Virus record (IMG/VR): IMGVR_UViG_3300033555_000001
Coordinates: 192,001 to 256,000 of that record
Origin: a virus
Lineage: Duplodnaviria; Caudoviricetes
DNA length: 64,000 nt
Reading direction: 5' to 3' (one strand)
Shown: positions 473 to 39,207 of the stretch, piece after piece
How the letters are laid out: the number at the start of each line of letters is the position of its first letter
Position numbering within the stretch: position 1 is the stretch's first letter
The notes under the pieces: generated by a model
What the model was told of the DNA's origin: nothing
The model's database searches: none
What the model saw: the letters and a program-made list of their open reading frames with translations, nothing else
Translations under genes and position numbers: made by a program

Positions 473-562
473 TCGCTTGTTACAATATCTCATCTCCTGT
501 CACCTACGTCGGGCGACAAAATAGGAGAAAATTAAATGACTCAAGAAAATCAAACTGCAACT
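473..562 (+). repeat. 90-bp direct repeat copy 1 (promoter, RBS and first 9 codons of the gene at 1314)
   Basis: tcgcttgttacaatatctcatctcctgtcacct...ataggagaaaattaaatgactcaaga recurs at 1251-1340 with 8 mismatches. Confidence 0.95.
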
Positions 563-604
563 GCGCTGGTGGGCGGTGGTGCACCACCGCAGTACTTGCA
601 ATGA
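536..604 (+). CDS. 22-aa leader peptide MTQENQTATALVGGGAPPQYLQ, stop overlapping the next start
   Basis: AGGAG RBS; begins like ORF 1314 (MTQDNQT); TGA 602-604 overlaps ATG 601 (ATGA). Confidence 0.5.
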   Translation: MTQENQTATALVGGGAPPQYLQ

Positions 605-1224
605 GCGATATTAATCTGATAAGAGCTTTGACAGGCAATAACCGAATTGAGCGAATTAGGCAGGCTAGGCTTGATTCAAGTTTCAATACAGTTATTGCAA
701 TATTAAAAGAATATTGCAGTGCAATACCAGCCTTTTCAGCGGACACAATTGGTCAAGAATTATTCGATGAGGTTAACAATATTGTCATCATTGCGAATTT
801 ACAGCCAGACCAAAAAAGATCAAAGGCTAAAAAAGAAGCTGATTTTAAGAGGGGGATGTTTTGCGAGTGCATGGTACGAGACGTGTTGCGTTTAGCACTT
901 GCAGAAATTGGATGGAAATGCGAGTGGCCCAACGATTCTGGGCCACGTGACCTAATTCTGACTAGCCCCGCAAAAATTAGATTTTTAGTAGATGTGAAAA
1001 CAAAGGCTGTTTTACCTGGCAAATCTGGAACTGTTACGTGTTCAGAGTCTGAGGCAAGAGCGCTGGTTAACGGCATGTACAAAAATGAAAAAATAGATGA
1101 AATACTATTAGCAATATTTAACATAAGCACAGCTGGAATTTATACATTTGCGGACGTTCGCCGCGCAAAAACAGAAGCATGGAGTCTGAGTGAGGATGGC
1201 TGCAGCTGGTATTTTGAATTTTAA
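601..1224 (+). CDS. Putative PD-(D/E)xK endonuclease (free-standing homing-type)
   Basis: E-CMVRD helix then PRDLILTS...FLVDVKTK (D...DxK); AT-rich; flanked by 90-bp repeats. Confidence 0.55.
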   Translation: MSDINLIRALTGNNRIERIRQARLDSSFNTVIAILKEYCSAIPAFSADTIGQELFDEVNNIVIIANLQPDQKRSKAKKEADFKRGMFCECMVRDVLRLALAEIGWKCEWPNDSGPRDLILTSPAKIRFLVDVKTKAVLPGKSGTVTCSESEARALVNGMYKNEKIDEILLAIFNISTAGIYTFADVRRAKTEAWSLSEDGCSWYFEF

Positions 1225-1250
1225 CCCAAACATCGCATAACCGGCAAATT

Positions 1251-1340
1251 TCGCTTGTTACAATATCTCATCTCCTGTCACCTGTGTTGGGCGACTGAAT
1301 AGGAGAAAATTAAATGACTCAAGATAATCAAACTACAATT
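1251..1340 (+). repeat. 90-bp direct repeat copy 2 (functional start of ORF 1314)
   Basis: Matches 473-562. Confidence 0.95.
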
Positions 1341-1799
1341 ATGCCAGCAGCCAATTTAGAAGCACCTCAAATCAATACTGACTGGGTTGCTGACATTGCT
1401 GACATGCATACGAAATTCGGCGTTAACACAGTTATCAGAAAACTTAATAAAGCAGACTTGGCCAAGTTCTTAAAATTTCGCGTTGATTTCTTGCAAGAAG
1501 AACTAGACGAGATGATTGCAGCCAGCGAAGACCCTGACTACAAAAAGCCAGACGCTCGTGGCGACGACATTGTCGATGCGCTGATTGACATTTGCGTTGT
1601 TGCAATTGGCACCATGAACGCGTTTGATGTTGATGCGCATACAGCATGGGCCAGAGTCCACAGTAAAAACATGGAAAAGAACGCTGGCGTCAATCCCAAT
1701 AGGCCCAACGAATTAGGACTGCCGGATCTGATCAAACCAGCTGGTTGGACTAGCCCTACACATGCGGATAATGTTGGCTTGTTAAGCAAGCTGTTTTAA
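1314..1799 (+). CDS. All-alpha NTP pyrophosphohydrolase (MazG/dimeric dUTPase-like)
   Basis: FLQEELDEM...DDIVDALIDICVVAIGT EExxE/D motif; C-terminal DLIKPAGWTSP. Confidence 0.8.
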   Translation: MTQDNQTTIMPAANLEAPQINTDWVADIADMHTKFGVNTVIRKLNKADLAKFLKFRVDFLQEELDEMIAASEDPDYKKPDARGDDIVDALIDICVVAIGTMNAFDVDAHTAWARVHSKNMEKNAGVNPNRPNELGLPDLIKPAGWTSPTHADNVGLLSKLF

Positions 1800-1800
1800 T

Positions 1801-6800: not shown

Positions 6801-6910
6801 GAATGATTTAAAACCGGCGGCGCGGTCTGTGTATCTTGTAATGCCTAAATACAAAACACTATTTGTCACCTAATGCCTCTATAATCGCGCATTTGCAACA
6901 TGGAAACTAA

Positions 6911-8791
6911 ATGACTCTGCCTATTACCAAATGTCCTGAAGGAGTTGGATCTATCTACGCCGATGGAACACGCACTGTGGGCGGTGTAGTTCCAGGCGGA
7001 TCAGTCGTTGGTGCCAGCACCGGTAACAGGTACACGCACACAAATCCATACGTGACGCCTGACATCTGCCTTGGCACTTTTAATCTGCTGGACTGTCAAG
7101 ATCTCTACCAGGAGCAATTGGCCGCTGAAAATTTAAATATCAGCGGTGCTCCATTAAACGTCTTTAAACTGCTTGGCGTACACGAGCAGGGAAAATTAAT
7201 CGATTTAGTCGGTGGTGGTCAGGCGCTAAACAGTACGGCACCTGCGTTTGACACCTTAGAATCAAACTGGGTGAGCGACCAGACGGGCATGGGGGTACTG
7301 ACTGCGCCATCATGGATTGGTTATGACTTTGGCACTATTAAGACTTCATTTGGACAAGACACCACTGCACCTGGATCACCAGCCGCCCAGCACATTACCT
7401 CTCTTAGAATAAGTCAGCCATCTAATGGTCGCCGCGCCCTACAAATAAGAGTAGATCGCAGTACTGGTGGCTTTGCGGTGGATCCACTTAAGGTGCAGTA
7501 CACTGGAACCGGTACTGGCTATTTTGCCGATTTTGCGTCAGGTGCCGGTGCCACCCCGGGATCTTTTATGCTCCTGGCTAATACTCCCACAAGCTTTACC
7601 GTTTACTACACCACGGCCACAACGGAGGTGGTAGGCGTGCTTACCGTTGGCGTTAGATTCAATTCACCATACGGTTCTTTTGTTGTACAAGCTGGCGCTG
7701 TGCCCTTTGGTGTTGGCGACATGTTCAGAGTGCCAGTTGAGCTTGAGTGGTACCGAGTTGATGTTGTTAACTTGCCAGACGTTCCAACCCCTGCGTTAAT
7801 TCGTATTAAGCAGTCATCGCCCTCGCGGTACTGGCGTGTTGTGCCAACATCGTTCAGCGGCGTCACGAGCGGTGAGGCGTGGGAAGTTGAGCAATTAGAA
7901 CTCTTTGACTTTCAAGCCACTCGTCTTGACGATGTTCAGGATCAGTTGTTTCTTGAAAACAGGGATCGGGACTATGCTAAACAGTCAGTGCAGTTTAAGG
8001 TAACTTACCAGCCATTTGACTCGCAGTCTGATCTCTCCAAATTCGGCTTTCAAGTATCAGACATTTATTCGTTTACTACTGTATTCAGCACAATGGTGCG
8101 TGCTCTTGGCCGGCCAATTGTAATTGGCGACGTGCTTGAAGTACCAAGTGAAATGCAGTACGATCACAACCTACGGCCAGTCCGAAAATTTCTAACGGTT
8201 ACTGATACTGGCTGGGCCAGTGACGGTTATACCACAAGCTGGCGGCCTATTACCTTTAAATTTCAGGCTGAACAGCTAATCCCAAGCCAAGAAACCAGAG
8301 ATATATTGGGAACGGTAGACACGCAAAAGTACGCCATTGATGACAGCGACTTTTTTGCCGGTATTCAGCAAATTCAAACTGGCCCGCTTACCTCCACCGA
8401 GGCAACAAACGCTGAGGCCGCCCTTGCAACGCCGGAAAAAGGCGAGCAATCACGTGAACTGGCCTCTGGAACAAATAGATTCCAGCGCCCTGGCAGCACA
8501 GATCAAGTAGGCCTCTACGTTGAAGATGGCCTGCCGCCCGGCGGCTTACCGTACACCGAAGCCTTTAAGCTGCCAGATGTAGGTGGTGCAGTTGACGGCC
8601 AGTATTTCAGGCTGAACTACGATCCAAAATTAAATATTGCTTCTCGACTGTACAAATTTAATGGTATTAAAAATACCTGGATGTACGAGGAAACTGACCG
8701 CCGCAGTGAACGCAACAGCATGAAACCATCGCAGCGTGAAGTGTTTAACCAACCTATTGTTGCATCGCTTACCACAAAGAGGATTACATGA
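6911..8791 (+). CDS. Neck/head-closure protein (T4 gp14-like) with inserted domains
   Basis: AENLNISGAPLNVFKLLG...FLENRDRDY...DLSKFG...IGDVLEVP; synteny. Confidence 0.65.
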   Translation: MTLPITKCPEGVGSIYADGTRTVGGVVPGGSVVGASTGNRYTHTNPYVTPDICLGTFNLLDCQDLYQEQLAAENLNISGAPLNVFKLLGVHEQGKLIDLVGGGQALNSTAPAFDTLESNWVSDQTGMGVLTAPSWIGYDFGTIKTSFGQDTTAPGSPAAQHITSLRISQPSNGRRALQIRVDRSTGGFAVDPLKVQYTGTGTGYFADFASGAGATPGSFMLLANTPTSFTVYYTTATTEVVGVLTVGVRFNSPYGSFVVQAGAVPFGVGDMFRVPVELEWYRVDVVNLPDVPTPALIRIKQSSPSRYWRVVPTSFSGVTSGEAWEVEQLELFDFQATRLDDVQDQLFLENRDRDYAKQSVQFKVTYQPFDSQSDLSKFGFQVSDIYSFTTVFSTMVRALGRPIVIGDVLEVPSEMQYDHNLRPVRKFLTVTDTGWASDGYTTSWRPITFKFQAEQLIPSQETRDILGTVDTQKYAIDDSDFFAGIQQIQTGPLTSTEATNAEAALATPEKGEQSRELASGTNRFQRPGSTDQVGLYVEDGLPPGGLPYTEAFKLPDVGGAVDGQYFRLNYDPKLNIASRLYKFNGIKNTWMYEETDRRSERNSMKPSQREVFNQPIVASLTTKRIT

Positions 8792-9222
8792 TCACGTTTA
8801 AGCAGTATATTAATGAGCAGGTAGCTGTTAATGTACCGCGCGTATTGTTTCATGCTGCACCTAGCAAATATAAACAAGATATTTTAAAACAAGGTCTTAA
8901 GCCTAGTAAAGGCGGCACGACGTTTTTAAATAGAACGTATTCAGCACGCGTTCATTTATGTACTAGGATTGAAGCGGCATGGGACTTCACAATGAGCATC
9001 AACGCACGCCGTGAGCAGGGTGAAGATGAAATTGAGTATGACATTTTCCACATAAACGTTGAAGAGCTTCCAGAAAATACTGAATTTTATACAGATCCAG
9101 CGTTTGACCACTTTGGGGTTTGGACTGAAGGTGTAATTCCGGCAACATCAATTGTTAAAGTTACTAAAGTTGATCATGACTGGGAACCGGATGATGATTA
9201 CTACGCTGGAAAAAATGAATAA
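8788..9222 (+). CDS. ADP-ribosyltransferase-fold (Tpt1/KptA-like) protein with capsid-targeting-like N-terminus
   Basis: LFHAA...ILKQGLKPS...RVHLC...IPATSI; N-terminus MITFKQYINE. Confidence 0.5.
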   Translation: MITFKQYINEQVAVNVPRVLFHAAPSKYKQDILKQGLKPSKGGTTFLNRTYSARVHLCTRIEAAWDFTMSINARREQGEDEIEYDIFHINVEELPENTEFYTDPAFDHFGVWTEGVIPATSIVKVTKVDHDWEPDDDYYAGKNE

Positions 9223-9251
9223 GCAATATAACTTGCAACCAAGAGGATTAC

Positions 9252-9695
9252 ATGAGATTAGATGAAATTAAAAAGCAGCTCACCCGCGCAGAAAAAGACG
9301 CCAAGCGAGATGCTGGTAAGAATGAACTGGCCAAGATTGATGCCGCAAACAAAGAAAAAGCGCTTGCAGCCAGGGATGCTAAGTACAACAACGGTGAGGC
9401 TCTTACAATTAAGCTCCCGGTAATTGGATCTAATGGTAAAATTACTACTCAGGAATTTATAATTGATAACTACCTGAAGCAGCGGCACGCCATGCAGGAT
9501 GTGCGGTTAAAGGATTTGAGCAAAGTGCCAGCTCTGCCCGGCGATCGTAAAGAAAAATCTTCATTTATTATTGACATGAATACCAAACACACAGAAGGTT
9601 CAATTGCCGCGTATTTGCACGGGCTGCCAAGTGGCACAAAACGCAAGGCTGGTGCAGAGCCAAACGATTTTAGACGAGAAGCGTACACGGCGTAA
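9252..9695 (+). CDS. Basic hypothetical protein, possible internal head protein
   Basis: MRLDEIKK start; Lys-rich. Confidence 0.5.
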   Translation: MRLDEIKKQLTRAEKDAKRDAGKNELAKIDAANKEKALAARDAKYNNGEALTIKLPVIGSNGKITTQEFIIDNYLKQRHAMQDVRLKDLSKVPALPGDRKEKSSFIIDMNTKHTEGSIAAYLHGLPSGTKRKAGAEPNDFRREAYTA

Positions 9696-9707: not shown

Positions 9708-10610
9708 ATGATTAAGCACTATTATTTTGACAACCAGCTTCGCGCGTATTTGCTGCAGTTTATTGCAATTTTCCAGGGGCTGCAAGTCCGTACTGGCCGC
9801 GGTGAGTGCAATGAAGAGCAGTACATCACTGTGCCGTGCGTAGTTGGAAGTAAAGACCGCGTGGTGGCTGCGTTGTTTGCTGGCAATACCCAGAATCGGG
9901 TCTTTAGCTTGCCAACAATGGCAGTACACATGACTGGGCTGTCAGTTGCAAATGATCGGCGAAAAGTTCAGGCACACGTAGATCAACGCGTAATAATGAA
10001 AGCGGGCGGCCAATTTCCAAATGATCTCACGGTTGCAAAGCGCGCCATGCCTATACCGTATGATATGACGGTTGAGCTAGCGCTCTACGCCTCTAATACG
10101 CAGCAACTGCACCAATTACTGGAACAAATTTTAGTCCTGTTTAATCCTGACATTCAGATTCAGAAAAGCGATGGTATGCTGGACTGGACAAAAATTACCA
10201 GTGTAGAGCTGACAGATATTTCAAATGAAGAGAATTATCCAAGCGCCACACAGAACAGAGCTATTGTCTGGACGCTGTCATTTAAGCTGCCAATTTTTCT
10301 AAGCGTGCCAATGGGCATAAAAGACGATGTGGTTCGCCGAGTGATTATTCAAATTGGTTCAATGGACACAATGGTTGTTAACGAAGTAGACGCAAACGGA
10401 GAATTAACGCCGTTTGGTGCGCCACTGGCCAAGATTGATTTTGACACTAGGGAAGTACCTGCGCCAGAAGAGTGCACCTACAATCAAGGAGCAACTCCAG
10501 AAGGTGAGTTAAATGATACTTGGTACAGCGCAGTAACCGCTACAACGCGTCGTTGGGACGGCAGCGCTTGGGTTGTTCTTGAACAGTACTTGCCACCACC
10601 ACGAGCATAA
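9708..10610 (+). CDS. Tail terminator / sheath stabiliser (T4 gp15-like)
   Basis: YYFDNQLRAYLLQFIAIF...VPCVVG...PIPYDMTVEL...LEQILVLFNPD. Confidence 0.75.
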   Translation: MIKHYYFDNQLRAYLLQFIAIFQGLQVRTGRGECNEEQYITVPCVVGSKDRVVAALFAGNTQNRVFSLPTMAVHMTGLSVANDRRKVQAHVDQRVIMKAGGQFPNDLTVAKRAMPIPYDMTVELALYASNTQQLHQLLEQILVLFNPDIQIQKSDGMLDWTKITSVELTDISNEENYPSATQNRAIVWTLSFKLPIFLSVPMGIKDDVVRRVIIQIGSMDTMVVNEVDANGELTPFGAPLAKIDFDTREVPAPEECTYNQGATPEGELNDTWYSAVTATTRRWDGSAWVVLEQYLPPPRA

Positions 10611-12626: not shown

Positions 12627-14471
12627 ATGGCAACACTCGTTTCCCCAGGTGTTTCAGTCTCAGTCACCAACGAGAGCTTCTTTCTTCCAGTAACTGCACC
12701 TACCGTGCCGGTTATCTTTATCGCCACAAAGAGCGGTAAACTGCAACCAAACGGTATTACCCCCGCAGCTGGTACTCTAGAATTTGGCGTCGTTCGTACG
12801 GTTACTTCGGTCCCACAGTCTGTTGAGCTCTTTGGCGTGCCCCATTTCCGCAACGATGTTTCGGGTAATGAGTTCCACGGTGATGCTCGCAATGAATATG
12901 GTCTCTTGGCGCTAAACCAATTTTTAGCAGCTGGTAATCGCGCGTACGTTGTTCGCGCAAATATTGACCTAACCGACGAACCAGAAACATTCATGTCGCT
13001 GGGAACACCAGGCTTGGTTGGCTCATCTGTTTCGTACAACGGCATTGGCGATGGTTCAATTGAATCAATCACAGCGGTAAGTAATGCCGTGAAGCCTCAG
13101 CTGTTTGCAGTACTGTTTACTTCACCAACGTCCTTTTCGGTTACAGGCGCACTGTCTGGCTACATTGGCGCTGGTAACGTAGATGCTGCCTTTACCTCGT
13201 CTAAAATTAACTTTACTGTTATGTCTGGCGCAGTGCCATTTAGCGCTGGCGACACATTCACGTTTAACATGGCCCATATGGCTGTTGCTGCAGGCAGCAA
13301 TACTGGTAATGGTTCTGTTGTTTCACTAACAGTTGATACACTTGCGCTGCCTGAAACTATTACTGTTCTGATGACATCAGCGTCTGCGTTTCAGGTTAAC
13401 AGCACAGTTTCAATGATTGAAAACGGCGTTGTCGGTTCGGCATTTGATAACAACCGCGTTAACTTTACTGTTCAGGCTGGCACCGTTCCATTTGTTGCTG
13501 GTGATGAGTTCACAATCACTGTAAGTTCAGTAACTGTAAGTGCTCCGCTGGGCGCTAACGATGCAGCAAAACGTGTTGCTATTGTTACCGCACTGCAAGC
13601 CGCAATTAACAGCAATGGTGATGTCCGGTCGGAACTCTATGAGTTTAACTTGATTGCTTGCCCAGGTTATCCAGAAGTTGCAGATGAATTACATTCGCTG
13701 AGCGCGTCAACAAAGCAAGAGTCTTTGGTTATTGCTGACACCCCGTGTGATAAATCACCGGATCAAGTTGCACAGTGGGCACTAACATCTGCTCGTGCTG
13801 CAGGCGAAGACATTGCGTATTACTATCCATGGTGCCTGACATCTAACCTTGACGGCCGCGACGTACTTGGCGCACCATCGGGTACTGCTCTTCGCACCAT
13901 AGCGTTCAGTGATCAACAAGGTTATGTATGGTCTGCTCCAGCCGGAGTATCAAATGGTGTGGTGTCTGGCGTATCTCGTCTGGCCTATATAACTGGCACC
14001 AAGGGTACTGCAACCACGCTGATTGAGACTAATCTAAATCAGGGTCAACGCGATAACCTGTACGAATACGATAAAAACATTAACCCAATCTCGTTCTTCC
14101 CGGGCCGTGGATTTATGTTGTTTGGACAGAAAACTTCAGCACCAGCAGCAAGTGCTCTTGACCGCATTAACGTTGCACGACTGGTTATGTACTTGCGTCG
14201 TACACTGCGCAAAGGTGCGTTGCCATTTGTTTTCCAACCAAACGATCAAATCACACGTGATAACTTGAAAGCCGCAGCCGATGGTATCTTGAATGATGTA
14301 TTGACTAAGCGTGGATTATATGATTTTGCCACTCAGTGCGATACTAGCAACAACACTGCGGTAAGAATAGATCGAAACGAGCTGTGGTTAGACGTTGCAA
14401 TCAAGCCAACGAAAACAGCCGAATTTATTTATATCCCGATCCGTGTTGTTAGTACTGGTGCAAATATCTAA
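12627..14471 (+). CDS. Contractile tail sheath protein (gp18-like)
   Basis: MATLVSPGVSVSV...FGQKT...LDRINVARL...FQPNDQITR...KPTKTAEFIYIP. Confidence 0.95.
   Translation: MATLVSPGVSVSVTNESFFLPVTAPTVPVIFIATKSGKLQPNGITPAAGTLEFGVVRTVTSVPQSVELFGVPHFRNDVSGNEFHGDARNEYGLLALNQFLAAGNRAYVVRANIDLTDEPETFMSLGTPGLVGSSVSYNGIGDGSIESITAVSNAVKPQLFAVLFTSPTSFSVTGALSGYIGAGNVDAAFTSSKINFTVMSGAVPFSAGDTFTFNMAHMAVAAGSNTGNGSVVSLTVDTLALPETITVLMTSASAFQVNSTVSMIENGVVGSAFDNNRVNFTVQAGTVPFVAGDEFTITVSSVTVSAPLGANDAAKRVAIVTALQAAINSNGDVRSELYEFNLIACPGYPEVADELHSLSASTKQESLVIADTPCDKSPDQVAQWALTSARAAGEDIAYYYPWCLTSNLDGRDVLGAPSGTALRTIAFSDQQGYVWSAPAGVSNGVVSGVSRLAYITGTKGTATTLIETNLNQGQRDNLYEYDKNINPISFFPGRGFMLFGQKTSAPAASALDRINVARLVMYLRRTLRKGALPFVFQPNDQITRDNLKAAADGILNDVLTKRGLYDFATQCDTSNNTAVRIDRNELWLDVAIKPTKTAEFIYIPIRVVSTGANI
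14409..14471 (+). repeat. 63-bp direct repeat copy 1 (sheath 3' end)
   Basis: Recurs at 16465-16527 with 5 mismatches. Confidence 0.95.
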
Positions 14472-14493: not shown

Positions 14494-14520
14494 AAAGGCA
14501 GATAGTATCTGCCTTTTCTT
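14494..14520 (+). terminator. Intrinsic terminator after sheath
   Basis: AAAGGCAGAT-agt-ATCTGCCTTT followed by TCTT. Confidence 0.8.
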
Positions 14521-14561: not shown

Positions 14562-15989
14562 ATGCCAACATGTAAAATATGCGGATACGCTCATGAGATA
14601 ATGATTCACTTTACTCATATCAGAAAACATGGTATGACGGTTCAGGAATATAAGCTAAAATTTCCCGGAGCCGCGCTGCGTGTGCAGAGCGAAGAATCTA
14701 AATTAAAAATGTCGGCCTCTAAAACAGGAAAGCCTTCTGGACTAAAGGGGAAAATCAGGTCTGAAGAACACTCTAAAAATATATCGGCCGCGCTAAAAGA
14801 AGCTTACTCTTCAGGAAAAATACAACATTGGAACTCAGGTAACACTACTCCACTGTGCGTTAAGGAAAAAATTGCGCAGGGAAATAGAGGCACAATAAAT
14901 GCTGGAAACATAAAGCAAAAGTTAAAAAAGCAGGAGAGAATTAAAGCCGGTGCCATAGCGTTTGGCTGTGAAGTGTTAAGCTGTGATGTAGAAGAACGCA
15001 CCACAGTAAAGTGCCTTGAATGTAAACACGTGTTTAGTTTTACAAACCAAATATTTTATGAAACTCGTTTAGAAAAGACTGGAAAGCTATGCCCGTCTTG
15101 TCAACCGCGAATTACATATTCTTCTGCGGGTGAGCAAGAGCTATTAAATTTCATCAAGTCAGTTTATGCTGGAATAATAATACCCAATGACCGAGGCGCT
15201 CTTGGAGGAAAAGAATTAGACGTTTATTTACCTGAACTCAAGATTGCATTTGAGTACACGGGGTTGTATTGGCACGCTGAAAAACAGAACCCAATAAACA
15301 AGCACTTGTTGTGGAAGAGAGACTTTGCGTTCAATCAAGGAGTCGAACTAATTACTGTGTTTGAAGATGAGTGGCACGATAAACAAGACATTGTTAAGTC
15401 TAGAATTATGAACATGCTAGGTCTTCAGGGTTTTAAATCTGCGGCCAGAAAATTAAAAATAGGTGTTCCATCCGTTAAAGAGAAGAATTTATTTCTGACT
15501 GAGAATCACTTGCAGGGTAGAGATACAAGTTCTGACTGGGCTGCGCTTATGGATGGTGGCGAGATCGTGTGCATTGCCACTTTTAAGAAAACTAGTATAT
15601 CAAAAGGCGGTTCTGGTGATCAGTGGGAATTAAGCAGGTTTGCATCAAAATTAAACACCCAGGTGCAGGGCGGAGCCAGCAGGCTTGTAAGCTGGTTTGT
15701 GCGCAAATACAAAGCAGACCTGGTGTCTTACGCTGATTCTAGATGGAGCACTGGAAAACTTTATAGAACTATGGGATTTGATTTTATCCATCGCTCTTCT
15801 CCAAGCTATTGGTACTTGTTAGATGGTTACAAACGACGCGTGCACCGCTCTGCGTTCATGAAACATCGACTTGTAAAATGTGAAGAGGATAAAGCTTTTA
15901 CGGAATGGGAACTTGCTCAGCAAGCAGGCATGGATCGCATTTGGGATTGCGGCACAACAAAGTGGCTGTTAAAGTACAATCCAAATTAA
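14562..15989 (+). CDS. Free-standing homing endonuclease (Zn module + NUMOD3 + PD-(D/E)xK + GNAT/Mom-like C-terminus; Hef-like)
   Basis: CKICG..HIRKH; SEEHSKNIS; GEQEL...ELDVYLPELKIAFEYTGLYWH; ELSRFAS...GGASRL...SYADSRWSTG.LY..MGF. Confidence 0.75.
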   Translation: MPTCKICGYAHEIMIHFTHIRKHGMTVQEYKLKFPGAALRVQSEESKLKMSASKTGKPSGLKGKIRSEEHSKNISAALKEAYSSGKIQHWNSGNTTPLCVKEKIAQGNRGTINAGNIKQKLKKQERIKAGAIAFGCEVLSCDVEERTTVKCLECKHVFSFTNQIFYETRLEKTGKLCPSCQPRITYSSAGEQELLNFIKSVYAGIIIPNDRGALGGKELDVYLPELKIAFEYTGLYWHAEKQNPINKHLLWKRDFAFNQGVELITVFEDEWHDKQDIVKSRIMNMLGLQGFKSAARKLKIGVPSVKEKNLFLTENHLQGRDTSSDWAALMDGGEIVCIATFKKTSISKGGSGDQWELSRFASKLNTQVQGGASRLVSWFVRKYKADLVSYADSRWSTGKLYRTMGFDFIHRSSPSYWYLLDGYKRRVHRSAFMKHRLVKCEEDKAFTEWELAQQAGMDRIWDCGTTKWLLKYNPN

Positions 15990-16076: not shown

Positions 16077-16430
16077 ATGACATACATCGCTGAATTAAAT
16101 CGTACACGGCATCTTGCTGGCTTACAGCCGCTGTCAGAGGCTCAAACGTCAAAAATCTCTTCAGAGCTTAATGAAGCGTTTATCGAGCTAGATTGGGCTC
16201 TTGGTAATACGCCTAAAGAAGTTGAAAAGCTCGTTAAAGCAGCTGCAGAAAAAGAAGACTTAAAAGCAGAAATCATCACAATGGACGGCCCGGGCGGTGG
16301 CAACCCGCTTGTAAGATTCTCAGGTAAAAAAGCTAACATTAAGAAGTTTCTAGTAACATATTGCCATGGCGACGAAACTGAAGCAGATTTCATGATGAAT
16401 GACATTGGTCATAAGCAAGGGACTAGATAG
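16077..16430 (+). CDS. Putative internal head protein (LAG-x-x-PLSE leader)
   Basis: ELNRTRHLAGLQPLSEA; TATAAATA at about 16034 and TGTACA-17-TATTAT at 15991-16019. Confidence 0.55.
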   Translation: MTYIAELNRTRHLAGLQPLSEAQTSKISSELNEAFIELDWALGNTPKEVEKLVKAAAEKEDLKAEIITMDGPGGGNPLVRFSGKKANIKKFLVTYCHGDETEADFMMNDIGHKQGTR

Positions 16431-16464: not shown

Positions 16465-16527
16465 ACGAAAACATCCAAATTTATTTATATCCCAATCCGC
16501 GTTGTTAGTACTGGCGCAAATATCTAA
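16465..16527 (+). repeat. 63-bp direct repeat copy 2: orphan copy of the last 20 sheath codons
   Basis: Reads TKTSKFIYIPIRVVSTGANI* versus TKTAEFIYIPIRVVSTGANI*; no start codon. Confidence 0.95.
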
Positions 16528-16548: not shown

Positions 16549-16572
16549 AAAGGGACCCGAAGGTCCCTTTTT
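16549..16572. terminator. Bidirectional intrinsic terminator
   Basis: AAAGGGACC-cgaa-GGTCCCTTTTT between convergent genes. Confidence 0.85.
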
Positions 16573-16981: not shown

Positions 16982-17776
16982 TTAGGAAAGTATTGTCTTT
17001 AATCTGACTAACTCCTGCTTTTGTTTGTGCTTCCACAAGAGCTCCCAAAACTCATGAATTACAATTCCCTGCTCTGCAGCGTATGCAAGTTTATCAGCTT
17101 CGCGTGACCCATCGCCTGGGTGCCAGTATTCACCGTGGTATTCAAAACCAATTTTTAAATCTGGAAGATAGATGTCAATTTCTTTTGGCTTTATCGCTTG
17201 GCGATCATTCACAATAATCCGACCAGTATATAGTGCTTTCACGGCCTCATACAGTTCACCTTGCCCCCGAGATACATGGCAGGACGGACACCAAATACCA
17301 GTCACGCGAGTAAACGGCCGGCTAAAAACTTCACCGCATATATGGTGCCACTTGTATTCGTTTTGCATGCCAGGAATAATCTCATCAACTGGTGTAATGC
17401 CCTTTACTGCAAGTTTATCAAGCTTAGCCTGCGCACGATTGTTGAAGTGCGCGCTTTTCATGTCATAAGAAGTCTGCGCTTTCCATTCAGGATCTGCCCA
17501 GAGCTTTTCGTGACGTATAGATTTTTCTGGAGCTAATAATGCTTGAGCACACTTCATTGAACACACTTTTCTGTAACCCACTGTGTAATTTATCCAGTTT
17601 GTTAGCTTTCCGCAGTAACATGTTGGCCGTATGTTTAAGACGTTCCAGGCCTTCTCGGAAATGCTATTACCATGATATTCATTCAACCATATTAGGCGCT
17701 CAGCGTTGCGCCATTTACCAGCACAATATTTGCCATCTTGGAACAAGGCAACGATGAGTTCAGTTTGTTTTGTCAT
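16982..17776 (-). CDS. Free-standing homing endonuclease (Zn modules + PD-(D/E)xK)
   Basis: CYCG..CSMKC; CPSC..SRGQGEL...KEIDIYLPDLKIGFEYHGEYWH; TAAATA on minus strand at 17781-17786. Confidence 0.75.
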   Translation of the reverse strand: MTKQTELIVALFQDGKYCAGKWRNAERLIWLNEYHGNSISEKAWNVLNIRPTCYCGKLTNWINYTVGYRKVCSMKCAQALLAPEKSIRHEKLWADPEWKAQTSYDMKSAHFNNRAQAKLDKLAVKGITPVDEIIPGMQNEYKWHHICGEVFSRPFTRVTGIWCPSCHVSRGQGELYEAVKALYTGRIIVNDRQAIKPKEIDIYLPDLKIGFEYHGEYWHPGDGSREADKLAYAAEQGIVIHEFWELLWKHKQKQELVRLKTILS

Positions 17777-18487: not shown

Positions 18488-18516
18488 TTTAAAGGGCCTG
18501 CTTTTTGCAGGCTTTT
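18488..18516 (+). terminator. Tube terminator copy 1 (shorter stem)
   Basis: GCCTGC-ttttt-GCAGGC-TTTT; 25-bp match to 18830-18854. Confidence 0.7.
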
Positions 18517-18524
18517 ATTGGATC

Positions 18525-18812
18525 TTGGAGAATAAATTGAATCTTGTTGAAACATTAAACAGAGCACGCGAGCTTGCCGGAATGGAGCCGCTGTCAGAAG
18601 CTGCAGCCAAAAAAATATCTAGCCCGTCATATAAAATTACATGGGAGGGTTATCCAAATAATCCTAAGCCAGAAACTCATGGCATTGAGTATTTTACAGA
18701 TGACCTGGCATTTGACAATGATGATCGTAATAAAATTAAAGATCTCGGAGTTGGCGACAAACATGTTATGGCTGGTCCTATGGACTCCGTCACGGTTGTT
18801 CGGATAAAGTAA
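18525..18812 (+). CDS. Putative internal head protein (LAG-x-x-PLSE leader)
   Basis: TLNRARELAGMEPLSEA; GGAG RBS, TTG start. Confidence 0.55.
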   Translation: MENKLNLVETLNRARELAGMEPLSEAAAKKISSPSYKITWEGYPNNPKPETHGIEYFTDDLAFDNDDRNKIKDLGVGDKHVMAGPMDSVTVVRIK

Positions 18813-18829: not shown

Positions 18830-18860
18830 TTTAAAGGGCCTGTTTCTTGCAGGCCCTTTT
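18830..18860 (+). terminator. Tube terminator copy 2 (full stem)
   Basis: AAAGGGCCTG-tttcttg-CAGGCCCTTT-T. Confidence 0.8.
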
Positions 18861-18933
18861 AGTATGCGCAGTAGATTAATACACACGCTTGAGTATAGCT
18901 AAATATCTTATTACTTTATAGCCTGGAAATATA

Positions 18934-20537: not shown

Positions 20538-20983
20538 TGGCCGGAACACGCAAAACATTTCAGGGAAGATTTATGCCTAAGAACCCAGGTAAATACTTGG
20601 GCAACGTTGGGAAAATAATTTTTCGATCAGGTTGGGAACTGCGAATGTTTCAGTGGTTTGATGCTACCCCATCTGTTTTACAGTGGGCAAGCGAAGAGTT
20701 TTCAGTTCCATATCTGTCACCACTTGATAACAAAGTGCACCAGTACTATCCGGATGCGTTTGTCATCTATAAAGATAAGTTTGGAAATTTGCAAAAAGAA
20801 ATTATTGAAATTAAACCGTACAAAGAAACAGTGCTTGGCCCAAAATCAACAGAGCGTGACAAGTTAGCGTGGGTAGTTAATCAGGCTAAATGGAAAGCTG
20901 CCGCACTGTTTGCTGAGCAACAGGGCTCTAAGTTCCGAGTAGTAACAGAAAAGTCTATGTTCGCCAATGGAAAAACAAAATGA
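20537..20983 (+). CDS. Head completion nuclease (T4 gp4-like, TnsA-N fold)
   Basis: GRFMPKNPGKYLG...RSGWE...WASEE...YYPD...IEIKP...NQAKW. Confidence 0.85.
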   Translation: MAGTRKTFQGRFMPKNPGKYLGNVGKIIFRSGWELRMFQWFDATPSVLQWASEEFSVPYLSPLDNKVHQYYPDAFVIYKDKFGNLQKEIIEIKPYKETVLGPKSTERDKLAWVVNQAKWKAAALFAEQQGSKFRVVTEKSMFANGKTK

Positions 20984-21462
20984 TTCTTTTGCGAGAACTG
21001 TTGGGCAGCCCTCTCGAATATACTTGGGTACAGCAACACGATGCTTACTGGAGAGCAGAATTTTTTGTTAATGGAGTTAGTTACTCAGTTATTGCAAGTG
21101 AAGAAAATAATTTTAAAGATGAAGGCGGAAATGATGCCGTGTATTGGGAAATATCGTTTGCGCAAACTGAAAAATCATTGACTGGAACTAAAACTAATTC
21201 TGGTGGAGAGTTACAAGTTTTTTCAACCGTTCAAGCAGCGGTGTTTGATTTCTTAGATCAGAAAAAACCCGATTGGATTGGCATAAGCTCAACTAAAAAA
21301 GAAGAGAACAGATTTAATTTATACTTACGAATGATCAACCGGTTAACGAGTAAACTTAACGGTATGGGTTATTCTTTGCATTCGTGCCCAACTTATGGAG
21401 ACACGTCTATCCAGCAATATCTGGATCAATATGAAACTTATTGCATGAGAAAAACAAAATGA
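20980..21462 (+). CDS. Hypothetical protein, paralogue of 23890; capsid-targeting-like N-terminus
   Basis: MILLRELL; WEISF...SGGELQVFSTV...R.NLY. Confidence 0.6.
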   Translation: MILLRELLGSPLEYTWVQQHDAYWRAEFFVNGVSYSVIASEENNFKDEGGNDAVYWEISFAQTEKSLTGTKTNSGGELQVFSTVQAAVFDFLDQKKPDWIGISSTKKEENRFNLYLRMINRLTSKLNGMGYSLHSCPTYGDTSIQQYLDQYETYCMRKTK

Positions 21463-21905
21463 TACCTTCAAAATTTAGTAATCCTCTTGATAGTCTTTTT
21501 GACATTGAAGCGGGTGATCGTGACGAGATGCAGGAATACGTCTCCACAACTGAAAATGAGATAACGGCACAGGCCCCTGCTGTAGTGGAAAAAGATCAAG
21601 AGGACATTGATACTGATCGTAAAATAGACGAGGTGTATGATACTGCGCTTAACTCATTTCAAGAACTAGTAGCGTACACGCAGATTATTGAGCCGCGCTA
21701 CGCAGCCCGCAATGCGGAAGTTGCTGCCACGTACTTAAGCCTGGCACTGCAGGCTGCTACTTCAAAGGCTAAGTTAAAAACCGACCGCAAGCGCGTTGCA
21801 ACGTTTATTCCAGGCGGTAACAAGGTTACTAACAATACTGTTGTGTGTTCAAGAGAAGAAATTATGCGAATGATTTCTGTAGATGCTGAAGTCAAGAAGA
21901 TCTAA
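21459..21905 (+). CDS. Putative terminase small subunit
   Basis: Helical protein of about 150 aa upstream of terL ending NNTVVCSREEIMRMI; function inferred from size and position. Confidence 0.45.
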   Translation: MIPSKFSNPLDSLFDIEAGDRDEMQEYVSTTENEITAQAPAVVEKDQEDIDTDRKIDEVYDTALNSFQELVAYTQIIEPRYAARNAEVAATYLSLALQAATSKAKLKTDRKRVATFIPGGNKVTNNTVVCSREEIMRMISVDAEVKKI

Positions 21906-21928
21906 TTATTAGACAAGGGAGATACACA

Positions 21929-22342
21929 ATGCAATTACTTCAAGAATTATTAGGTTTGCTCAAGGGGCAAAAGCAAAAAGGCAGGTTGACTGAAGCAGAA
22001 AAGACGGGCTATCAGATCAAAGTTGATTCAGCCGTTAGAGGAAATTGGAAGGATTCGCATTTGAATGCTGCTTCACTTGACGATATAGCCAGTGCGGTTT
22101 CCGCTTCACCAGTAGATGATCAGGCTCATGACAAATTTAACCTGAGCAAACTTACCACATTAGTTACAGATTTTATTGGTGTTGGGCCTGGTGGTCAAGG
22201 AACATCCTGGGAAGAAATAGACTATGACGTGGTATCCTTACAAGATGATGTGCTGAAAATTAGCTGGAGATTTTCAGGTGTAAAGCAGAGCGACACAGAA
22301 GTGGTAAAAACAGGCATGATTACAATAATGCCAGCTGAATAA
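21929..22342 (+). CDS. Hypothetical protein with MQLLQEL leader
   Basis: GGAG RBS; flanked by 42-bp repeats 21864-21905 and 22349-22390. Confidence 0.6.
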   Translation: MQLLQELLGLLKGQKQKGRLTEAEKTGYQIKVDSAVRGNWKDSHLNAASLDDIASAVSASPVDDQAHDKFNLSKLTTLVTDFIGVGPGGQGTSWEEIDYDVVSLQDDVLKISWRFSGVKQSDTEVVKTGMITIMPAE

Positions 22343-22348: not shown

Positions 22349-22390
22349 ATGCGAAAGATCTCTGTAGACGCTGAAGTCAAGAAGATTTAA
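22349..22390 (+). repeat. 42-bp copy of the 3' end of ORF 21459 (other copy 21864-21905)
   Basis: atgcgaaagatctctgtagacgctgaagtcaagaagatttaa versus atgcgaatgatttctgtagatgctgaagtcaagaagatctaa, 4 mismatches. Confidence 0.95.
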
Positions 22391-22397
22391 TTTACTA

Positions 22398-22433: not shown

Positions 22434-22500
22434 GTTGCCATTAAATAACTGAGTCCTGTCTAGCCAGACTCTCTAAATACTCGACAACCTGGAGATAGCC

Positions 22501-23893: not shown

Positions 23894-24327
23894 TTACATT
23901 TAAAGAATTTCTGGGCGAGCTCTTGAATCGCAAAGTTGAGTACACGGTAGACCGTGAATCAAACACTAGCTTTCAAACATCTGCCAATATTGGAGATCGC
24001 ACAATTAAGTTCAGTGCGTGGGTAACAGACGAGCCTGATGCGTGGGAGATCTTATTTTCAGAGCGCAACGATAAAATAAGCGGTACTTATTCGGCCACTG
24101 GCAGTGGGAATGAGCTCGAAGTATTCAGCATGGTCAAGGATTCAATTCTTGAACTAATTTCAAAGTACAGCCCTGCAAAAATTACTTTTACCGCTGACAA
24201 AGAGGGCAATAAGCGCGCCAGCGTTTATGATAAGCTTTTAAAAAGATTTAAAGTTCCTGGTTACACTCACAGCAGAGTAGATGGTTCAGGATTTGAGGAA
24301 TTTGTTATTGTGAGAAATGATGATTAA
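23890..24327 (+). CDS. Hypothetical protein, paralogue of 20980; capsid-targeting-like N-terminus
   Basis: MITFKEFLGE; WEILF...TGSGNELEVFSMV...RASVY. Confidence 0.6.
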   Translation: MITFKEFLGELLNRKVEYTVDRESNTSFQTSANIGDRTIKFSAWVTDEPDAWEILFSERNDKISGTYSATGSGNELEVFSMVKDSILELISKYSPAKITFTADKEGNKRASVYDKLLKRFKVPGYTHSRVDGSGFEEFVIVRNDD

Positions 24328-35724: not shown

Positions 35725-35751
35725 GCCTGTAAATTAAAAATTCATACTACA

Positions 35752-36629: not shown

Positions 36630-38038
36630 GTAAAACTGCGCATATTTGGGTAAGAGACGAAGTCTGGATGACTGTGGCCGGCCTTGAGGTATCGGATCAC
36701 ACCTTTCTCTGGAACAAGTTTGGAATTGAAGTTGAGGGTTCATTTTTCATGCCGGCCCGAAAGCTTGGTCGATGGGACGGCAAGCTCAGATTCTTTGACA
36801 AAACCGGCAAAGTATATCTGCGCTTTTTAAACGACATAGTTCCCTTCCTTGAAAAATGGAACTACGAGATTGAGCTGCATGATGAGCGGCGCCCTCTAAA
36901 TCTGGTAACAGGTAGGCTTACACCAACGTGGTTTAATGATCACGGCAGAGCCCAGATACCTGTTACGTTGCGCCCCTACCAAGTAGACGCCGTGAACGCT
37001 TGTTTGCACGAGGGATCTGGCATGGTTATTGCGGCTACTGGCAGCGGTAAAACATGGATGTGCGCCGGTCTTGTTGATGTGGTAGGATCAGAAGGACTGC
37101 GATCAATTACCATTGTTCCCTCCTCTGATCTTGTTGGGCAAACCTCAAGCACCTTTAAACTAGCCGGAATCGAACATGGTCTCTATTCTGGTTCTGAAAA
37201 GAATCTCTATCAGCCACATGTAATTGCTACCTGGCAGGCGCTGCAAAATAATCCAACCGTCATGGCGGACTTTCAGACCGTGATTGTTGACGAGGCGCAC
37301 GGCGCCAAGGCCAGCACAATTGGTGAACTGATTACTGAGCACGGGAAAAATATCGGTTATCGCTTTGGATTTACTGGTACACTGCCCAAGCCACTTACCG
37401 ACCAGTACACGCTGCGTGGATCTATTGGCGAAGTTCTGTATTCAATTACTGCAGCTGATTTAATTCAAATGGGGTTCTTGGCAAGACTTGAAATTGAGCC
37501 TGTTGAGATTACTGAAAATGTCGGAGAAGAATTTCCTGATTACTCCTCGGAAAAAGCCTTTACTAGCCGATCACCCGAGCGCCTGGATTTTATGGCTGAT
37601 TTAATTATTAGCCGTGCTGCTGAGCATGGAAATACTCTGGTGTTGGTAAACACAATTAAGCAAGGACAGCAACTACATAAGCTTATTAAAGACAGCGTGT
37701 TCTTGTGCGGTGCCAGCGAAAATGACATTCGCGCTGAGTGGTACGGGACCTTTGCGCATCGTGACGACTTGATTGTAATTGCAACTGCTGGAATTGCCTC
37801 AACCGGAATTAGTATAGATAGGGTTTTTAATTTAATGCTAATTGACGCGGGTAAGTCGTTTATTCGCGCCATTCAATCAATTGGCCGTGGGTTGCGCAAG
37901 AGCGCCGACAAAGATTTTGTGCATGTGTGCGACGTTTATAGTGGTTTAAAGTGGGGTAAAAAGCATTTTAAAGAACGTGCTCGCTATTATAAAGATGCCG
38001 AATACCCAGTCCTTAAACCAACTAAGGTAAAGCTATGA
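36626..38038 (+). CDS. uvsW: SF2 DNA helicase UvsW
   Basis: LRPYQ; ATGSGKT; VDEAH; TGT; QSIGRGLR. Confidence 0.92.
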   Translation: MSKTAHIWVRDEVWMTVAGLEVSDHTFLWNKFGIEVEGSFFMPARKLGRWDGKLRFFDKTGKVYLRFLNDIVPFLEKWNYEIELHDERRPLNLVTGRLTPTWFNDHGRAQIPVTLRPYQVDAVNACLHEGSGMVIAATGSGKTWMCAGLVDVVGSEGLRSITIVPSSDLVGQTSSTFKLAGIEHGLYSGSEKNLYQPHVIATWQALQNNPTVMADFQTVIVDEAHGAKASTIGELITEHGKNIGYRFGFTGTLPKPLTDQYTLRGSIGEVLYSITAADLIQMGFLARLEIEPVEITENVGEEFPDYSSEKAFTSRSPERLDFMADLIISRAAEHGNTLVLVNTIKQGQQLHKLIKDSVFLCGASENDIRAEWYGTFAHRDDLIVIATAGIASTGISIDRVFNLMLIDAGKSFIRAIQSIGRGLRKSADKDFVHVCDVYSGLKWGKKHFKERARYYKDAEYPVLKPTKVKL

Positions 38039-38283
38039 AAATTCATATTCAACTAGATCAAGGCTGGCAATTTGCTATTCAATCACTAGACTGTGATCCG
38101 GACCGTTCTTCTGAAGATAAGCACATGTTAGAAGTAGATCAGGCTTTTATTGAAGAGTACTGTGAAGCTTGTGACAGATATGACAAATTAAAAGATCAAG
38201 TCGAGCAGCTCTATCGTGTACAACAAGGTTTAAAACCTTGGGCAACGCCTGCCGTGCCACCCCATGAAATAATCGAAGAGTAA
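38035..38283 (+). CDS. Hypothetical protein
   Basis: Coupled to uvsW. Confidence 0.55.
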   Translation: MKIHIQLDQGWQFAIQSLDCDPDRSSEDKHMLEVDQAFIEEYCEACDRYDKLKDQVEQLYRVQQGLKPWATPAVPPHEIIEE

Positions 38284-38310
38284 TTAAATCATTGACCCCC
38301 GGAGATTAAA

Positions 38311-38820
38311 ATGAATATCATCAACGAATTAAATAAGCCCTACATTATAGACTCGCTAACAGCGCCACTTCCGCTGCGGTATCACTGGACGTTTAGTGGC
38401 CAGCAACTGGATTTTATGATGACTGAAATTACTTATCTTGAGGAAACAGTAGGCCCAACAGTTACTCTAGTAATTGACGACAGCGAAGTAAAGGTACCGG
38501 GCGCCTGGAGTATTTTGATTGTTGATCGTGAAACGTATACTATTGACGCAGTGCCAGTAACGGCCTGTGCAGCATTTGCGCACGACGCCTTTGTGTTTTC
38601 GCCAAGCGACAGCAAATTAATTACTGCGCAAGTTCGAGTTGTTGCGTCTGAGCAAAAGGGAACGTGCATTTACCCTGCCGTTGACAAGGGAAATGCACTT
38701 GTTCACGCCATTACGCCTGGCATCTCGCACGGTAAAAGCATTGCCAGAGGAGTCATTGTTGGCCCACATGACCTGTGGCGTTGGATCTCAGGCCGCACAG
38801 TCGGAGACGTTCTCGGCTAA
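38311..38820 (+). CDS. Hypothetical beta-rich protein
   Basis: GGAG RBS. Confidence 0.65.
   Translation: MNIINELNKPYIIDSLTAPLPLRYHWTFSGQQLDFMMTEITYLEETVGPTVTLVIDDSEVKVPGAWSILIVDRETYTIDAVPVTACAAFAHDAFVFSPSDSKLITAQVRVVASEQKGTCIYPAVDKGNALVHAITPGISHGKSIARGVIVGPHDLWRWISGRTVGDVLG
38791..38820 (+). repeat. 30-bp exact direct repeat (3' end of ORF 38311); second copy 39138-39167
   Basis: ggccgcacagtcggagacgttctcggctaa occurs twice. Confidence 0.97.
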
Positions 38821-38847
38821 AACCTTAATCAAGATAAAAGGAATTAT

Positions 38848-39120
38848 ATGATAGACAAACAGATTGTGGCAATTAGAAAATTTACTTTTGGAATGCTTGG
38901 GGGCGGCATTAGCCAAATTAAACTCTCAGATGGCAGTATTATGGATATTAACCAGGCCGTATATAACATTGAATATTCGCAACACCAGTATTTCACTATG
39001 GATGCGTTCGGTCGCCGCACCTCAGTTAGAGTGCAACGCGGCTGGTGCACGGGGCCATATCTAATTGCTGAGTCCGACAATAGCACAAGCAATAATTTAC
39101 TATCATTGCCGAAGTTCTAA
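38848..39120 (+). CDS. DUF3892-like protein
   Basis: C-terminal V.V.....PYL...D....NNLLSLPKF pattern. Confidence 0.55.
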   Translation: MIDKQIVAIRKFTFGMLGGGISQIKLSDGSIMDINQAVYNIEYSQHQYFTMDAFGRRTSVRVQRGWCTGPYLIAESDNSTSNNLLSLPKF

Positions 39121-39207
39121 GCTAAATTTTCCTCGGTGGCCGCACAGTCGGAGACGTTCTCGGCTAACCGCAACCGCTAAATAGACTTCTCAACACGAGG
39201 AGTCTAT

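Follow-up and report, generated by a model that had tools for sequence, protein, structure and literature searches.

A 64,000-nucleotide stretch of a phage genome, bases 192,001-256,000 of the 310,728-bp virus record IMGVR_UViG_3300033555_000001, carries seven small inserts, each lying between two copies of a boundary of a neighbouring gene. We refer to the whole stretch as the window, and to each insert with its flanking repeats as a cassette. On balance, we think it probable that the repeats are scars of single out-of-register joins, homologous on one side and illegitimate on the other, between diverged relatives that co-infected a cell. The duplications do not look like the work of a new integration machine; they look like the products of sloppy recombination. 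The anatomy of the cassettes, the restriction of each repeat to two local copies, the direction in which orphan copies lie, and the absence of the inserts from relatives and of recombinase genes from the genome were observed directly and are described below.

Anatomy of the seven cassettes

Direct repeats bracket 7/7 inserts (Table 1), and all seven pairs listed in the preliminary description of this DNA were found where it had placed them. The repeats had been taken for the local gene's 3' end, terminator or 5' start, and this is what they are. In the first of three builds (pairs 2, 3, 5, 6 and 7), a gene closes with the 4-20 codons and stop that make up the first repeat; the insert comes next, and behind it a second copy, which ends on the same stop. 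In the second (pair 1), an orphan regulatory region with the first 9 codons of a MazG-like gene stands 5' of the insert and the working copy stands 3' of it; in the third (pair 4), the open reading frame (ORF) ORF95 lies between two copies of a terminator hairpin.

Pair 1 is 90% identical over 93 nt (468-560/1246-1338), or identical at 82/90 positions in the frame first reported (473-562/1251-1340). Pair 2 agrees at 21/24 positions, with an exact core of 15 nt, and reads in frame as LTTKRIT-stop and LATKRIT-stop; pair 3 agrees at 58/63, pair 4 at 23/25 (18488-18512/18830-18854) and pair 6 at 38/42 (21864-21905/22349-22390, with 3 synonymous differences and 1 non-synonymous), while pairs 5 (15/15) and 7 (30/30) are identical throughout. 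That the copies often differ synonymously was borne out, since the coding copies show 8 synonymous to 4 non-synonymous codon differences. The flanking core gene had also been said to be left intact: it does stay whole, but gene A of cassette 1, described below, is lineage-specific and not core.

Chance was modelled by second-order Markov simulations of the genome, counting direct pairs within 3 kb per 311 kb. Simulated pairs numbered 1.7 when counted from 29 bits upwards and none from 37 bits upwards, while the real genome holds 127 direct pairs of at least 40 bits against 1 inverted (not deduplicated, with tandem arrays included). Chance does not account for pairs 1, 3, 4, 6 and 7 (37-129 bits). 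Pairs 2 and 5 both lie exactly on xTGA stop/start overlaps, and identical in-register runs of at least 15 nt around gene starts occur in 5/1811 neighbouring as against 1/63042 distant genes, an enrichment of about 175-fold. Each repeat is present in exactly two copies genome-wide, both local, even at loose mismatch thresholds, with near-matches elsewhere in the genome for pair 5 only. The same genome-wide search upheld the earlier observation that the different repeats share no sequence with one another.

The pattern is also directional. When the last 30 nt of every gene of at least 60 residues were searched for within 4 kb, allowing at most 7 mismatches, 6 orphan 3'-end copies were found outside paralogue arrays, all of them downstream; none lay upstream or on the opposite strand. 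A seventh downstream orphan, that of the gp46-like gene, is too short for a 30-nt probe and was detected by the general repeat scan. It lies outside the window, where the gp46/SbcC-like gene is followed by a 112-residue insert and then by a 33-nt orphan of the gene end plus spacer. Two further cases outside the window are a 172-nt repeat of the same build at a gene of 676 residues, and a 31-nt exact orphan of the start of a 261-residue gene, which stands 5' of a 66-residue insert.

Of the seven, cassette 1 is the most informative. Its order is gene A (ending at position -30), gene B (to 455), the regulatory repeat with 9 MazG-like codons (468-562), a copy of the end of gene A (to 604), insert 1 (ins1), the regulatory repeat again and the complete MazG-like gene. 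The repeat of the gene A end measures 29 nt (581-609), with its partner outside the window at -53..-25. The stop of gene A overlaps the start of gene B, and likewise the TGA of the chimeric mini-ORF overlaps the ATG of ins1. The whole forms a tandem unit of 778 nt whose flanks, the end of gene A and the promoter and start of the MazG-like gene, are 90-97% identical, while the inner genes, B (162 residues) and ins1 (207 residues), are unrelated. The simplest origin of cassette 1 is one join between two genomes with different genes in the same slot. Homologues of gene A, gene B or ins1 were not found in 80 relatives' loci around MazG-like homologues.

In both copies of the MazG-like leader (485-545, 1263-1323), a predicted hairpin of -13.1 kcal/mol pairs UCUCCU with the AGGAGA Shine-Dalgarno sequence, and the differences between the copies fall at unpaired positions (loops and bulges). 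No homologue of ins1 was found by sequence. In the ESM Atlas, both its features and its structure resemble those of PD-(D/E)XK restriction endonucleases, and D117 with D131-x-K133 can be picked out by eye as the motif; an AlphaFold single-sequence model reached a pLDDT of 37 and was unusable. A restriction-endonuclease-like ins1 is therefore offered as a lead only.

Table 1 Features of the seven cassettes, with positions in the window unless marked otherwise
Cassette	Feature	Position	Strand
1	Orphan: promoter-like region of MazG-like gene, hairpin sequestering the Shine-Dalgarno sequence, ribosome-binding site, first 9 codons	468..562	+
1	Chimeric mini-ORF, 22 codons: MazG-like codons 1-9 and orphan last codons of gene A	536..604	+
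1	Insert 1 (ins1), 207 residues, sequence ORFan, PD-(D/E)XK restriction-endonuclease-like (lead only)	601..1224	+
1	Functional copy: regulatory region and start of MazG-like gene (1314-1799)	1246..1340	+
2	Functional: last 7 codons and stop of gene for 626-residue virion protein (6911-8791), overlaps ORF144 start	8768..8791	+
2	Insert 2, ORF144: leader MITFKQYINE, like a capsid targeting sequence; ADP-ribosyltransferase-like fold (lead)	8788..9222	+
2	Orphan 3' end; supplies ribosome-binding site and start of ORF147 (9252-9695)	9232..9255	+
3	Functional: last 20 codons and stop of tail sheath gene (12627-14471)	14409..14471	+
3	Terminator hairpin behind functional sheath end	14494-14516	
3	Insert 3a, predicted free-standing homing endonuclease: NUMOD3 and Vsr-like (EDxHD/Hef-type) domain	14562..15989	+
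3	Insert 3b, ORF117, leader MTYIAELNRTRHLAG in common with ORF95	16077..16430	+
3	Orphan of sheath 3' end	16465..16527	+
3	Terminator hairpin behind orphan sheath end	16549-16570	
	Second homing-endonuclease-like gene in sheath-tube gap, same nuclease family	16982..17776	-
4	Terminator hairpin 3' of tail tube gene (17882-18475)	18488..18523	+
4	Insert 4, ORF95: N-terminal 30 residues paralogous to ORF117	18525..18812	+
4	Second terminator-hairpin copy	18830..18865	+
5	Last 4 codons and stop of 148-residue gene (20537-20983), overlaps ORF160 start; borderline	20970..20984	+
5	Insert 5, ORF160: leader MILLRELLG, distant paralogue of 23890-24327	20980..21462	+
5	Second copy, ORF160's own last 4 codons and stop; overlaps small-terminase-like ATG at 21459	21449..21463	+
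6	Functional: last 13 codons and stop of small-terminase-like gene (21459-21905)	21864..21907	+
6	Insert 6, ORF137: leader MQLLQELLG in common with ORF142 (22501-22929)	21929..22342	+
6	Orphan copy; spacer 22393-22500 behind	22349..22392	+
7	Functional: last 9 codons and stop of 169-residue gene (38311-38820)	38791..38820	+
7	Insert 7, ORF90 (DUF3892)	38848..39120	+
7	Orphan copy	39138..39167	+
	Starts of leader-family genes	window 8788, 10950, 23219, 23890, 30668; genome 72216	

Relatives, leaders and a homing endonuclease

The genome that carries the cassettes (CheckV completeness 87%) is placed by its genes among the T4-related jumbo phages. Its virion and packaging genes encode a tail sheath, a tube, a T4 gp15-like protein and a large terminase, its recombination and replication genes gp32, a UvsX-like RecA, UvsW, a UvsY-like protein and a gp46/SbcC-like nuclease, and it also encodes a Peptidase_S77 prohead protease of the gp21 type (PF03420, 81.5 bits). 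A 48.9-kb Logan contig from run SRR10873320, an ice metagenome, matches the window at 100% identity through all seven cassettes; it was built by a second, independent (k-mer) assembler, but from the same sample as the IMG/VR record. Exact-protein look-ups returned solely the same phage in the same sample, and the phage sequence is present in only two runs. No near-identical relative was found by megablast against 50,697 phage records, and the closest sheath (IMG/VR; 5.8 billion proteins) is 75% identical, so the relatives are distant. A related phage of about 80-88% identity co-occurs in the source sample at lower depth, and a glacier metagenome contains fragments of 90-99% identity.

Even at this distance, the relatives' loci confirm that the inserts are accessory, as had been proposed, because they lack homologues of them and keep an uninterrupted gene order. 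The sheath and tube genes are adjacent in at least nine loci, the tube and a second tube-like gene in at least six, the genes for the 626-residue and gp15-like proteins in five and those for the 148-residue and small-terminase-like proteins in two; the 169-residue and GH108 lysozyme-like genes are adjacent in G001 and G004, with ORF90 absent between them. No homologue of ins1, ORF144, ORF117, ORF95, ORF160 or ORF137 was found in 59 relatives' loci. The preliminary description had asked for empty sites with a single repeat copy, and at slots 2, 3, 4, 5 and 7 distant relatives without the insert do keep one boundary copy, not two. In the co-occurring relative, the sheath 3' region leads to the start of the tube gene through some 508 unrelated letters, and the 3.4-kb block is missing. 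The inserts have a G+C content of 0.37-0.44, compared with 0.41-0.50 for the surrounding core genes, and are not paralogous to their neighbours.

The same loci show how rare the pattern is. High-quality orphan 3' ends (at most 5 mismatches in 30) number four in this genome, and none was found in the relatives' loci (811 kb + 619 kb) or in four complete relatives (1.31 Mb), a difference with P of about 0.001, conditional on exposure. Rather than being a general property of the family, gene-end duplication is largely confined to this genome. One candidate from relative G004 was rejected as a chance match of acidic C-terminal tails. Most direct repeats in relatives are of another kind: between the homologues of 6911-8791 and 9708-10610, relatives L009, L010, L017 and L028 carry tandem arrays of paralogues of about 215 residues, with 20-60 nt of nearly identical sequence at the gene starts.

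It had further been reported that five cassettes carry a leader-tagged ORF, and 5/8 enclosed ORFs do bear an N-terminal leader shared with other genes, against 6/478 of the other genes (P=1e-7). The family to which the ORF144 leader belongs, M-x-[TS]-[FY]-[KQR]-[EDQ]-[FY]-[LI]-x-E, counts five strict N-terminal members in this genome and 80 ORFs in relatives' loci totalling 1.43 Mb, with 1 non-Met control match. Variants such as MITFKQYINE, MITFKEYLLE, MRFKEFLAE, MITFKEFLGE, MSTFQDFLVE and MLTFRQFLQE precede unrelated proteins, including an amidoligase-like protein of 525 residues, and an N-terminal [LI]-x-E is found in 15.8% as compared with about 8% in internal control windows. ORF160 and ORF137 have a looser form (MILLRELLG, MQLLQELLG), and ORF117 and ORF95 have a leader MTYIAE...LNRxRxLAG in common. 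The strict family resembles the capsid targeting sequence of T4, MKTYQEFIAE (Mullaney and Black 1996 via PMC8442874). In the ESM Atlas, ORF144 falls with Arr-ms and PARP clusters by features and with Tpt1 and DUF952 by structure, and on these predictions it looks like a small protein with an ADP-ribosyltransferase fold. By analogy with T4 Alt, it is possible that ORF144, with its leader resembling a capsid targeting sequence, is an injected enzyme. The enrichment of leaders among the inserts hints that such phages turn over the genes of putative injected proteins faster than any others.

The absence of a mobility enzyme, which the preliminary description had also stated, holds for integrases and transposases but not for homing endonucleases. 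In the whole 311-kb genome, no match to the tyrosine recombinase (PF00589), serine recombinase (PF00239) or rve transposase (PF00665) families was found, and positive controls worked. Cassette 3, however, is predicted from its sequence to encode a homing endonuclease of the EDxHD/Hef (Vsr-like) type. This protein of 475 residues contains NUMOD3 (PF07460, 28.6 bits vs a cut-off of 20.4) and matches PHROG 3339, annotated 'homing endonuclease', at 2.9e-85. Its match to the I-Bth0305I domain (3r3p) is weak (E=0.037), and in that alignment D220, the His of YWH and the acidic FEDEWHD stretch align with catalytic positions. Phage Hef-type endonucleases belong to the same Vsr-like family (Taylor et al. 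2011, PMC3239194).

The endonuclease family has five paralogues in the genome, and another of them lies in the same sheath-tube gap on the opposite strand. Across relatives, this gap is empty in at least nine and holds one to four endonuclease homologues in others. Relative L058 has up to four endonuclease copies near its sheath gene, two of them in tandem and each behind a copy of a 49-nt repeat. In the present genome, the orphan sheath end begins abruptly within a segment that is nearly invariant in 120 homologues and is the most conserved of the family. A conserved segment of this sort is the kind of target such enzymes use, and it is also a good homology anchor.

Some other features of the window fall outside the cassettes. 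A promoter-like motif, CCGTTACA-N-TTTAA ... TATAAT, precedes small genes at 55417-55483, 56273-56321 and 58034-58097 (and at genome positions 19392/19992 and 84686/87390); unlike the private cassette repeats, this recurring motif is a dispersed regulatory element. The spacer before the 626-residue gene (6850-6884) includes about 31-33 nt that also stand at the ends of three other Logan contigs of the same phage, and is therefore a repeated element that breaks the Logan assembly. Nine tandem copies of the 12-nt unit CGCCTGTTGAGA at 50119-50259 are presumably coding, for a 4-residue peptide repeat, and at 58938-59958 there are three tandem paralogues of about 113 residues, 75-81% identical, with a 338-nt period and xTGA-type overlaps. 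The 148-residue gene next to cassette 5 bears conflicting labels, 'head closure' in PHROGs (phrog_218, 1e-45) and a TnsA-like endonuclease N-terminal domain in Pfam.

Origin of the copies

The reading that we favour would run as follows. One cell would be infected at once by two relatives that had diverged, with roughly 90-97% identity in the repeats, and that brought different accessory genes for the same slot between conserved genes. An out-of-register join would then lead from genome 1, just behind its accessory gene, into genome 2 at a point where only a few codons of the upstream gene remained or, in the 5' type, would fall shortly behind the start of the downstream gene. The product would have a complete neighbour gene, would gain an extra ORF and would carry a short orphan of the gene end or start, so that alternative genes for a slot would become stacked with every gene whole. 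The survivors would all be alike because only joins with an overlap across the gene boundary spare all genes. For cassette 3, the homing endonuclease now in the insert probably cut the DNA itself, as in one-sided homing: homology in the conserved 3' region of the sheath gene would have served to repair one end, and an illegitimate join the other. What we infer from the anatomy is that the relatives co-infected a cell, that a single join made the recombinant and that the endonuclease took part.

Several lines of evidence argue for such joins. The homology of the orphan copies begins abruptly, with a homologous side and a non-homologous joint on the other, and one-sided illegitimate repair of double-strand breaks is known for T4 intron homing (PMC2988022). 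Both sheath-end copies are followed after about 22 nt by a terminator hairpin, and since the two hairpins differ, the copies stand in two bona fide gene-end contexts. In the glacier-metagenome relative, the spacer that here trails the orphan copy of cassette 6 comes directly after the true stop of the small-terminase-like gene. Cassette 1, the sheath terminators, the glacier spacer and the codon differences discussed below together favour two genomic contexts over duplication in place. Within that spacer, at 22398-22437, a 19-20-nt sequence, AACAGATGTACATTAAT..., is tandemly duplicated here and apparently occurs once in the glacier relative.

The divergence of the copies carries information of its own. 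Compared with random decay of an orphan, the synonymous excess of 8:4 is significant (P=0.004). Together with the heteroallelic unit of cassette 1, this bias points to diverged relatives and agrees with the earlier proposal that the DNA came from related phages. The similar divergence of pairs 1, 2, 3, 4 and 6 (8-12%) suggests, by inference from these sequences, one exchange episode with a partner of about 90% identity. One-sided homologous and illegitimate recombination, triggered by an endonuclease in at least one case, is the best mechanistic match.

Other points weigh against this interpretation. A recognised homing endonuclease is present in cassette 3 alone (1/7), and pairs 2 and 5 (29.5 bits) are borderline and by score alone at noise level. 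The interpretation offers no reason why this genome has many scars and about 2.7 Mb of relatives have no high-quality ones, and neither a donor genome nor a strain-level empty-site allele turned up. When set against duplication in situ with selection on the working copy, the 8:4 ratio yields a weak rejection only (P=0.077), and pair 7 (30/30) fits in-situ duplication equally well. A circle integrated by homology would give an identical product, and sequence cannot separate the two.

This last alternative is Campbell-type capture, in which a small circle, released from a relative through an illegitimate join and bearing the accessory gene with part of its neighbour, would integrate by UvsX-type homologous recombination within that part, and the repeats would allow precise excision later, as in an accordion. 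The architecture of its product is exactly the one observed, and one circle of this kind could be represented by the 778-nt unit of cassette 1. The genome has the recombination genes, T4-type recombination requires less than 50 bp of homology, and in RB49/phi1 mini-circles arising by recombination between flanking repeats were demonstrated by inverse PCR (PMC2839356). Nevertheless, capture calls for two events, circle formation and integration, where one out-of-register crossover suffices, and several of the repeats, merely 15-30 nt long and 8-12% diverged, would be poor substrates; we hold it to be doubtful. The excision joints predicted for cassettes 3 and 7 had no exact match in metagenome contigs, a result uninformative either way, and no joint of copy 1 to copy 2 was seen in contigs of the source run, which cannot show rare variants and so give no evidence either way. 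The wider proposal, that gene ends serve as private integrase-free attachment sites and that circles, excised by the phage's UvsX-type recombination, pass between co-infecting relatives and re-enter through the short homology in a reversible turnover of leader-tagged proteins, seems to us unlikely. If true, it would mean that leader-tagged proteins, probably packaged in the capsid and injected, are turned over preferentially within the otherwise fixed structural block of jumbo T4-type phages.

The copies could also have arisen in situ, either from a staggered break or replication slippage that duplicated 15-90 nt of the gene end at insertion, as a long target-site duplication, or from tandem duplication with replacement of the inner gene, followed by divergence. 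Pair 7 and the uncertain rejection by the synonymous excess, both cited above, suit this origin, as do the two non-synonymous changes of the sheath orphan, which fall at family-invariant residues as in decay after orphaning. However, cassette 1 would require a tandem duplication in which gene B was replaced by an unrelated gene, the differing sheath terminators and the glacier spacer indicate two separate genomic contexts, and the shared divergence of 8-12% fits one diverged partner better than independent ageing. We judge an origin in situ quite improbable. Simple tandem duplication was rejected for cassette 1 and is unlikely for the rest, the inserts not being paralogues of their neighbours.

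It is very unlikely that the repeats are selected regulatory elements (terminators, ribosome-binding or coupling signals, a leader sequestering the Shine-Dalgarno sequence) whose similarity to the neighbouring gene reflects a common function: pair 4 is indeed a terminator hairpin, both copies of pair 1 have the sequestering hairpin, and pairs 2 and 5 supply ribosome-binding sites and start contexts, but the orphans of pairs 3, 6 and 7 read in frame as coding sequence up to the stop and have no gene in front, each element is present only twice and only locally, and relatives do without them. The least credible explanation is an assembly artefact in which two co-occurring strains were threaded into one contig with their slot alleles in tandem: a related phage of lower depth is in the same sample and the pattern is peculiar to this single assembled genome, but two assemblies, IMG/VR and Logan, agree letter for letter through 48.9 kb with all joints included, De Bruijn contigs require each joint word to be in the reads, and the co-occurring relative (about 80-88%) is too diverged to account for copies that are 92-100% identical.

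Comparison with known systems

Single one-sided joins, the origin that we favour, have counterparts among described systems. Among integrase-free cassettes known from T4-type phages, the nearest are the PeSL (promoter-early stem-loop) cassettes and mini-circles of RB49 and phi1 (Arbiol et al. 2010, PMC2839356; Comeau et al. 2014, PMC4122927). There, small ORFans are gained, lost and swapped through short flanking repeats and without an integrase; here too, short repeats flank small genes that were probably gained without one, and repeat 1 of the present genome also joins a promoter-like element, a stem-loop and a ribosome-binding site. PeSL cassettes differ in having one conserved motif at many sites of hyperplastic regions, whereas the repeats described here are private to their locus, occur in exactly two copies, consist mostly of coding sequence of the neighbouring gene, and lie within blocks of structural and recombination genes.

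In one-sided homing of T4 (PMC2988022), an endonuclease break is repaired by homology on one side and by an ectopic join on the other. Cassette 3 is comparable in that its free-standing endonuclease lies by a conserved essential gene and is present in some relatives and absent from others. The T4 process was demonstrated in experiments on the td intron, whereas the break, target and donor proposed for cassette 3 are reconstructed from the product.

Homology-facilitated illegitimate recombination was reportedly described by de Vries and Wackernagel in 2002 in naturally transformable bacteria that take up linear DNA. It likewise combines a homologous anchor with an illegitimate join and needs no dedicated recombinase, but it is bacterial, not phage-phage, and usually deletes recipient DNA with no duplicated gene end. 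The atp6 gene of Allomyces is said, after Paquin, Laforest and Lang (1994), to have acquired a mobile endonuclease gene with a foreign 3' end, the original 3' end being left orphaned downstream. That case belongs to an organelle and its endonuclease is fused in frame, while the present one is a free-standing gene behind a phage terminator.

The cargo of the cassettes also recalls the hypervariable internal-protein loci of T-even phages (Repoila et al. 1994 via PMC2839356). Both have variable cargo, a short N-terminal leader ending in [LI]-x-E and plastic loci, and a prohead protease is encoded here too. The leaders MQLLQELLG and LNRxRxLAG are only loosely similar to that of T4, and the present proteins are putative counterparts of the internal proteins. 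Lambdoid morons (Hendrix et al. 2000, discussed in PMC2839356), which have their own promoter and terminator and no flanking repeats, are single extra genes between conserved genes as well, presumably placed there by illegitimate recombination. The hallmark of the present inserts, by which they differ from morons, is the duplicated boundary of the neighbouring gene.

According to a review of T4-related genomes (PMC2993671), the junctions between core and imported DNA bear no recognisable signature, and the agents of lateral transfer are unknown. About ten junctions in the present genome have a readable one, namely an orphan copy of the end or start of a neighbouring gene. From this signature one can read where the illegitimate join lies and roughly how far the partner genome had diverged, and it suggests how both alternatives for a slot may persist, which would be one simple route for the growth of jumbo phage genomes. 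It is easily searched for with the directional 30-nt test, and within the family it marks this genome as one that has been through an unusual burst of such events.

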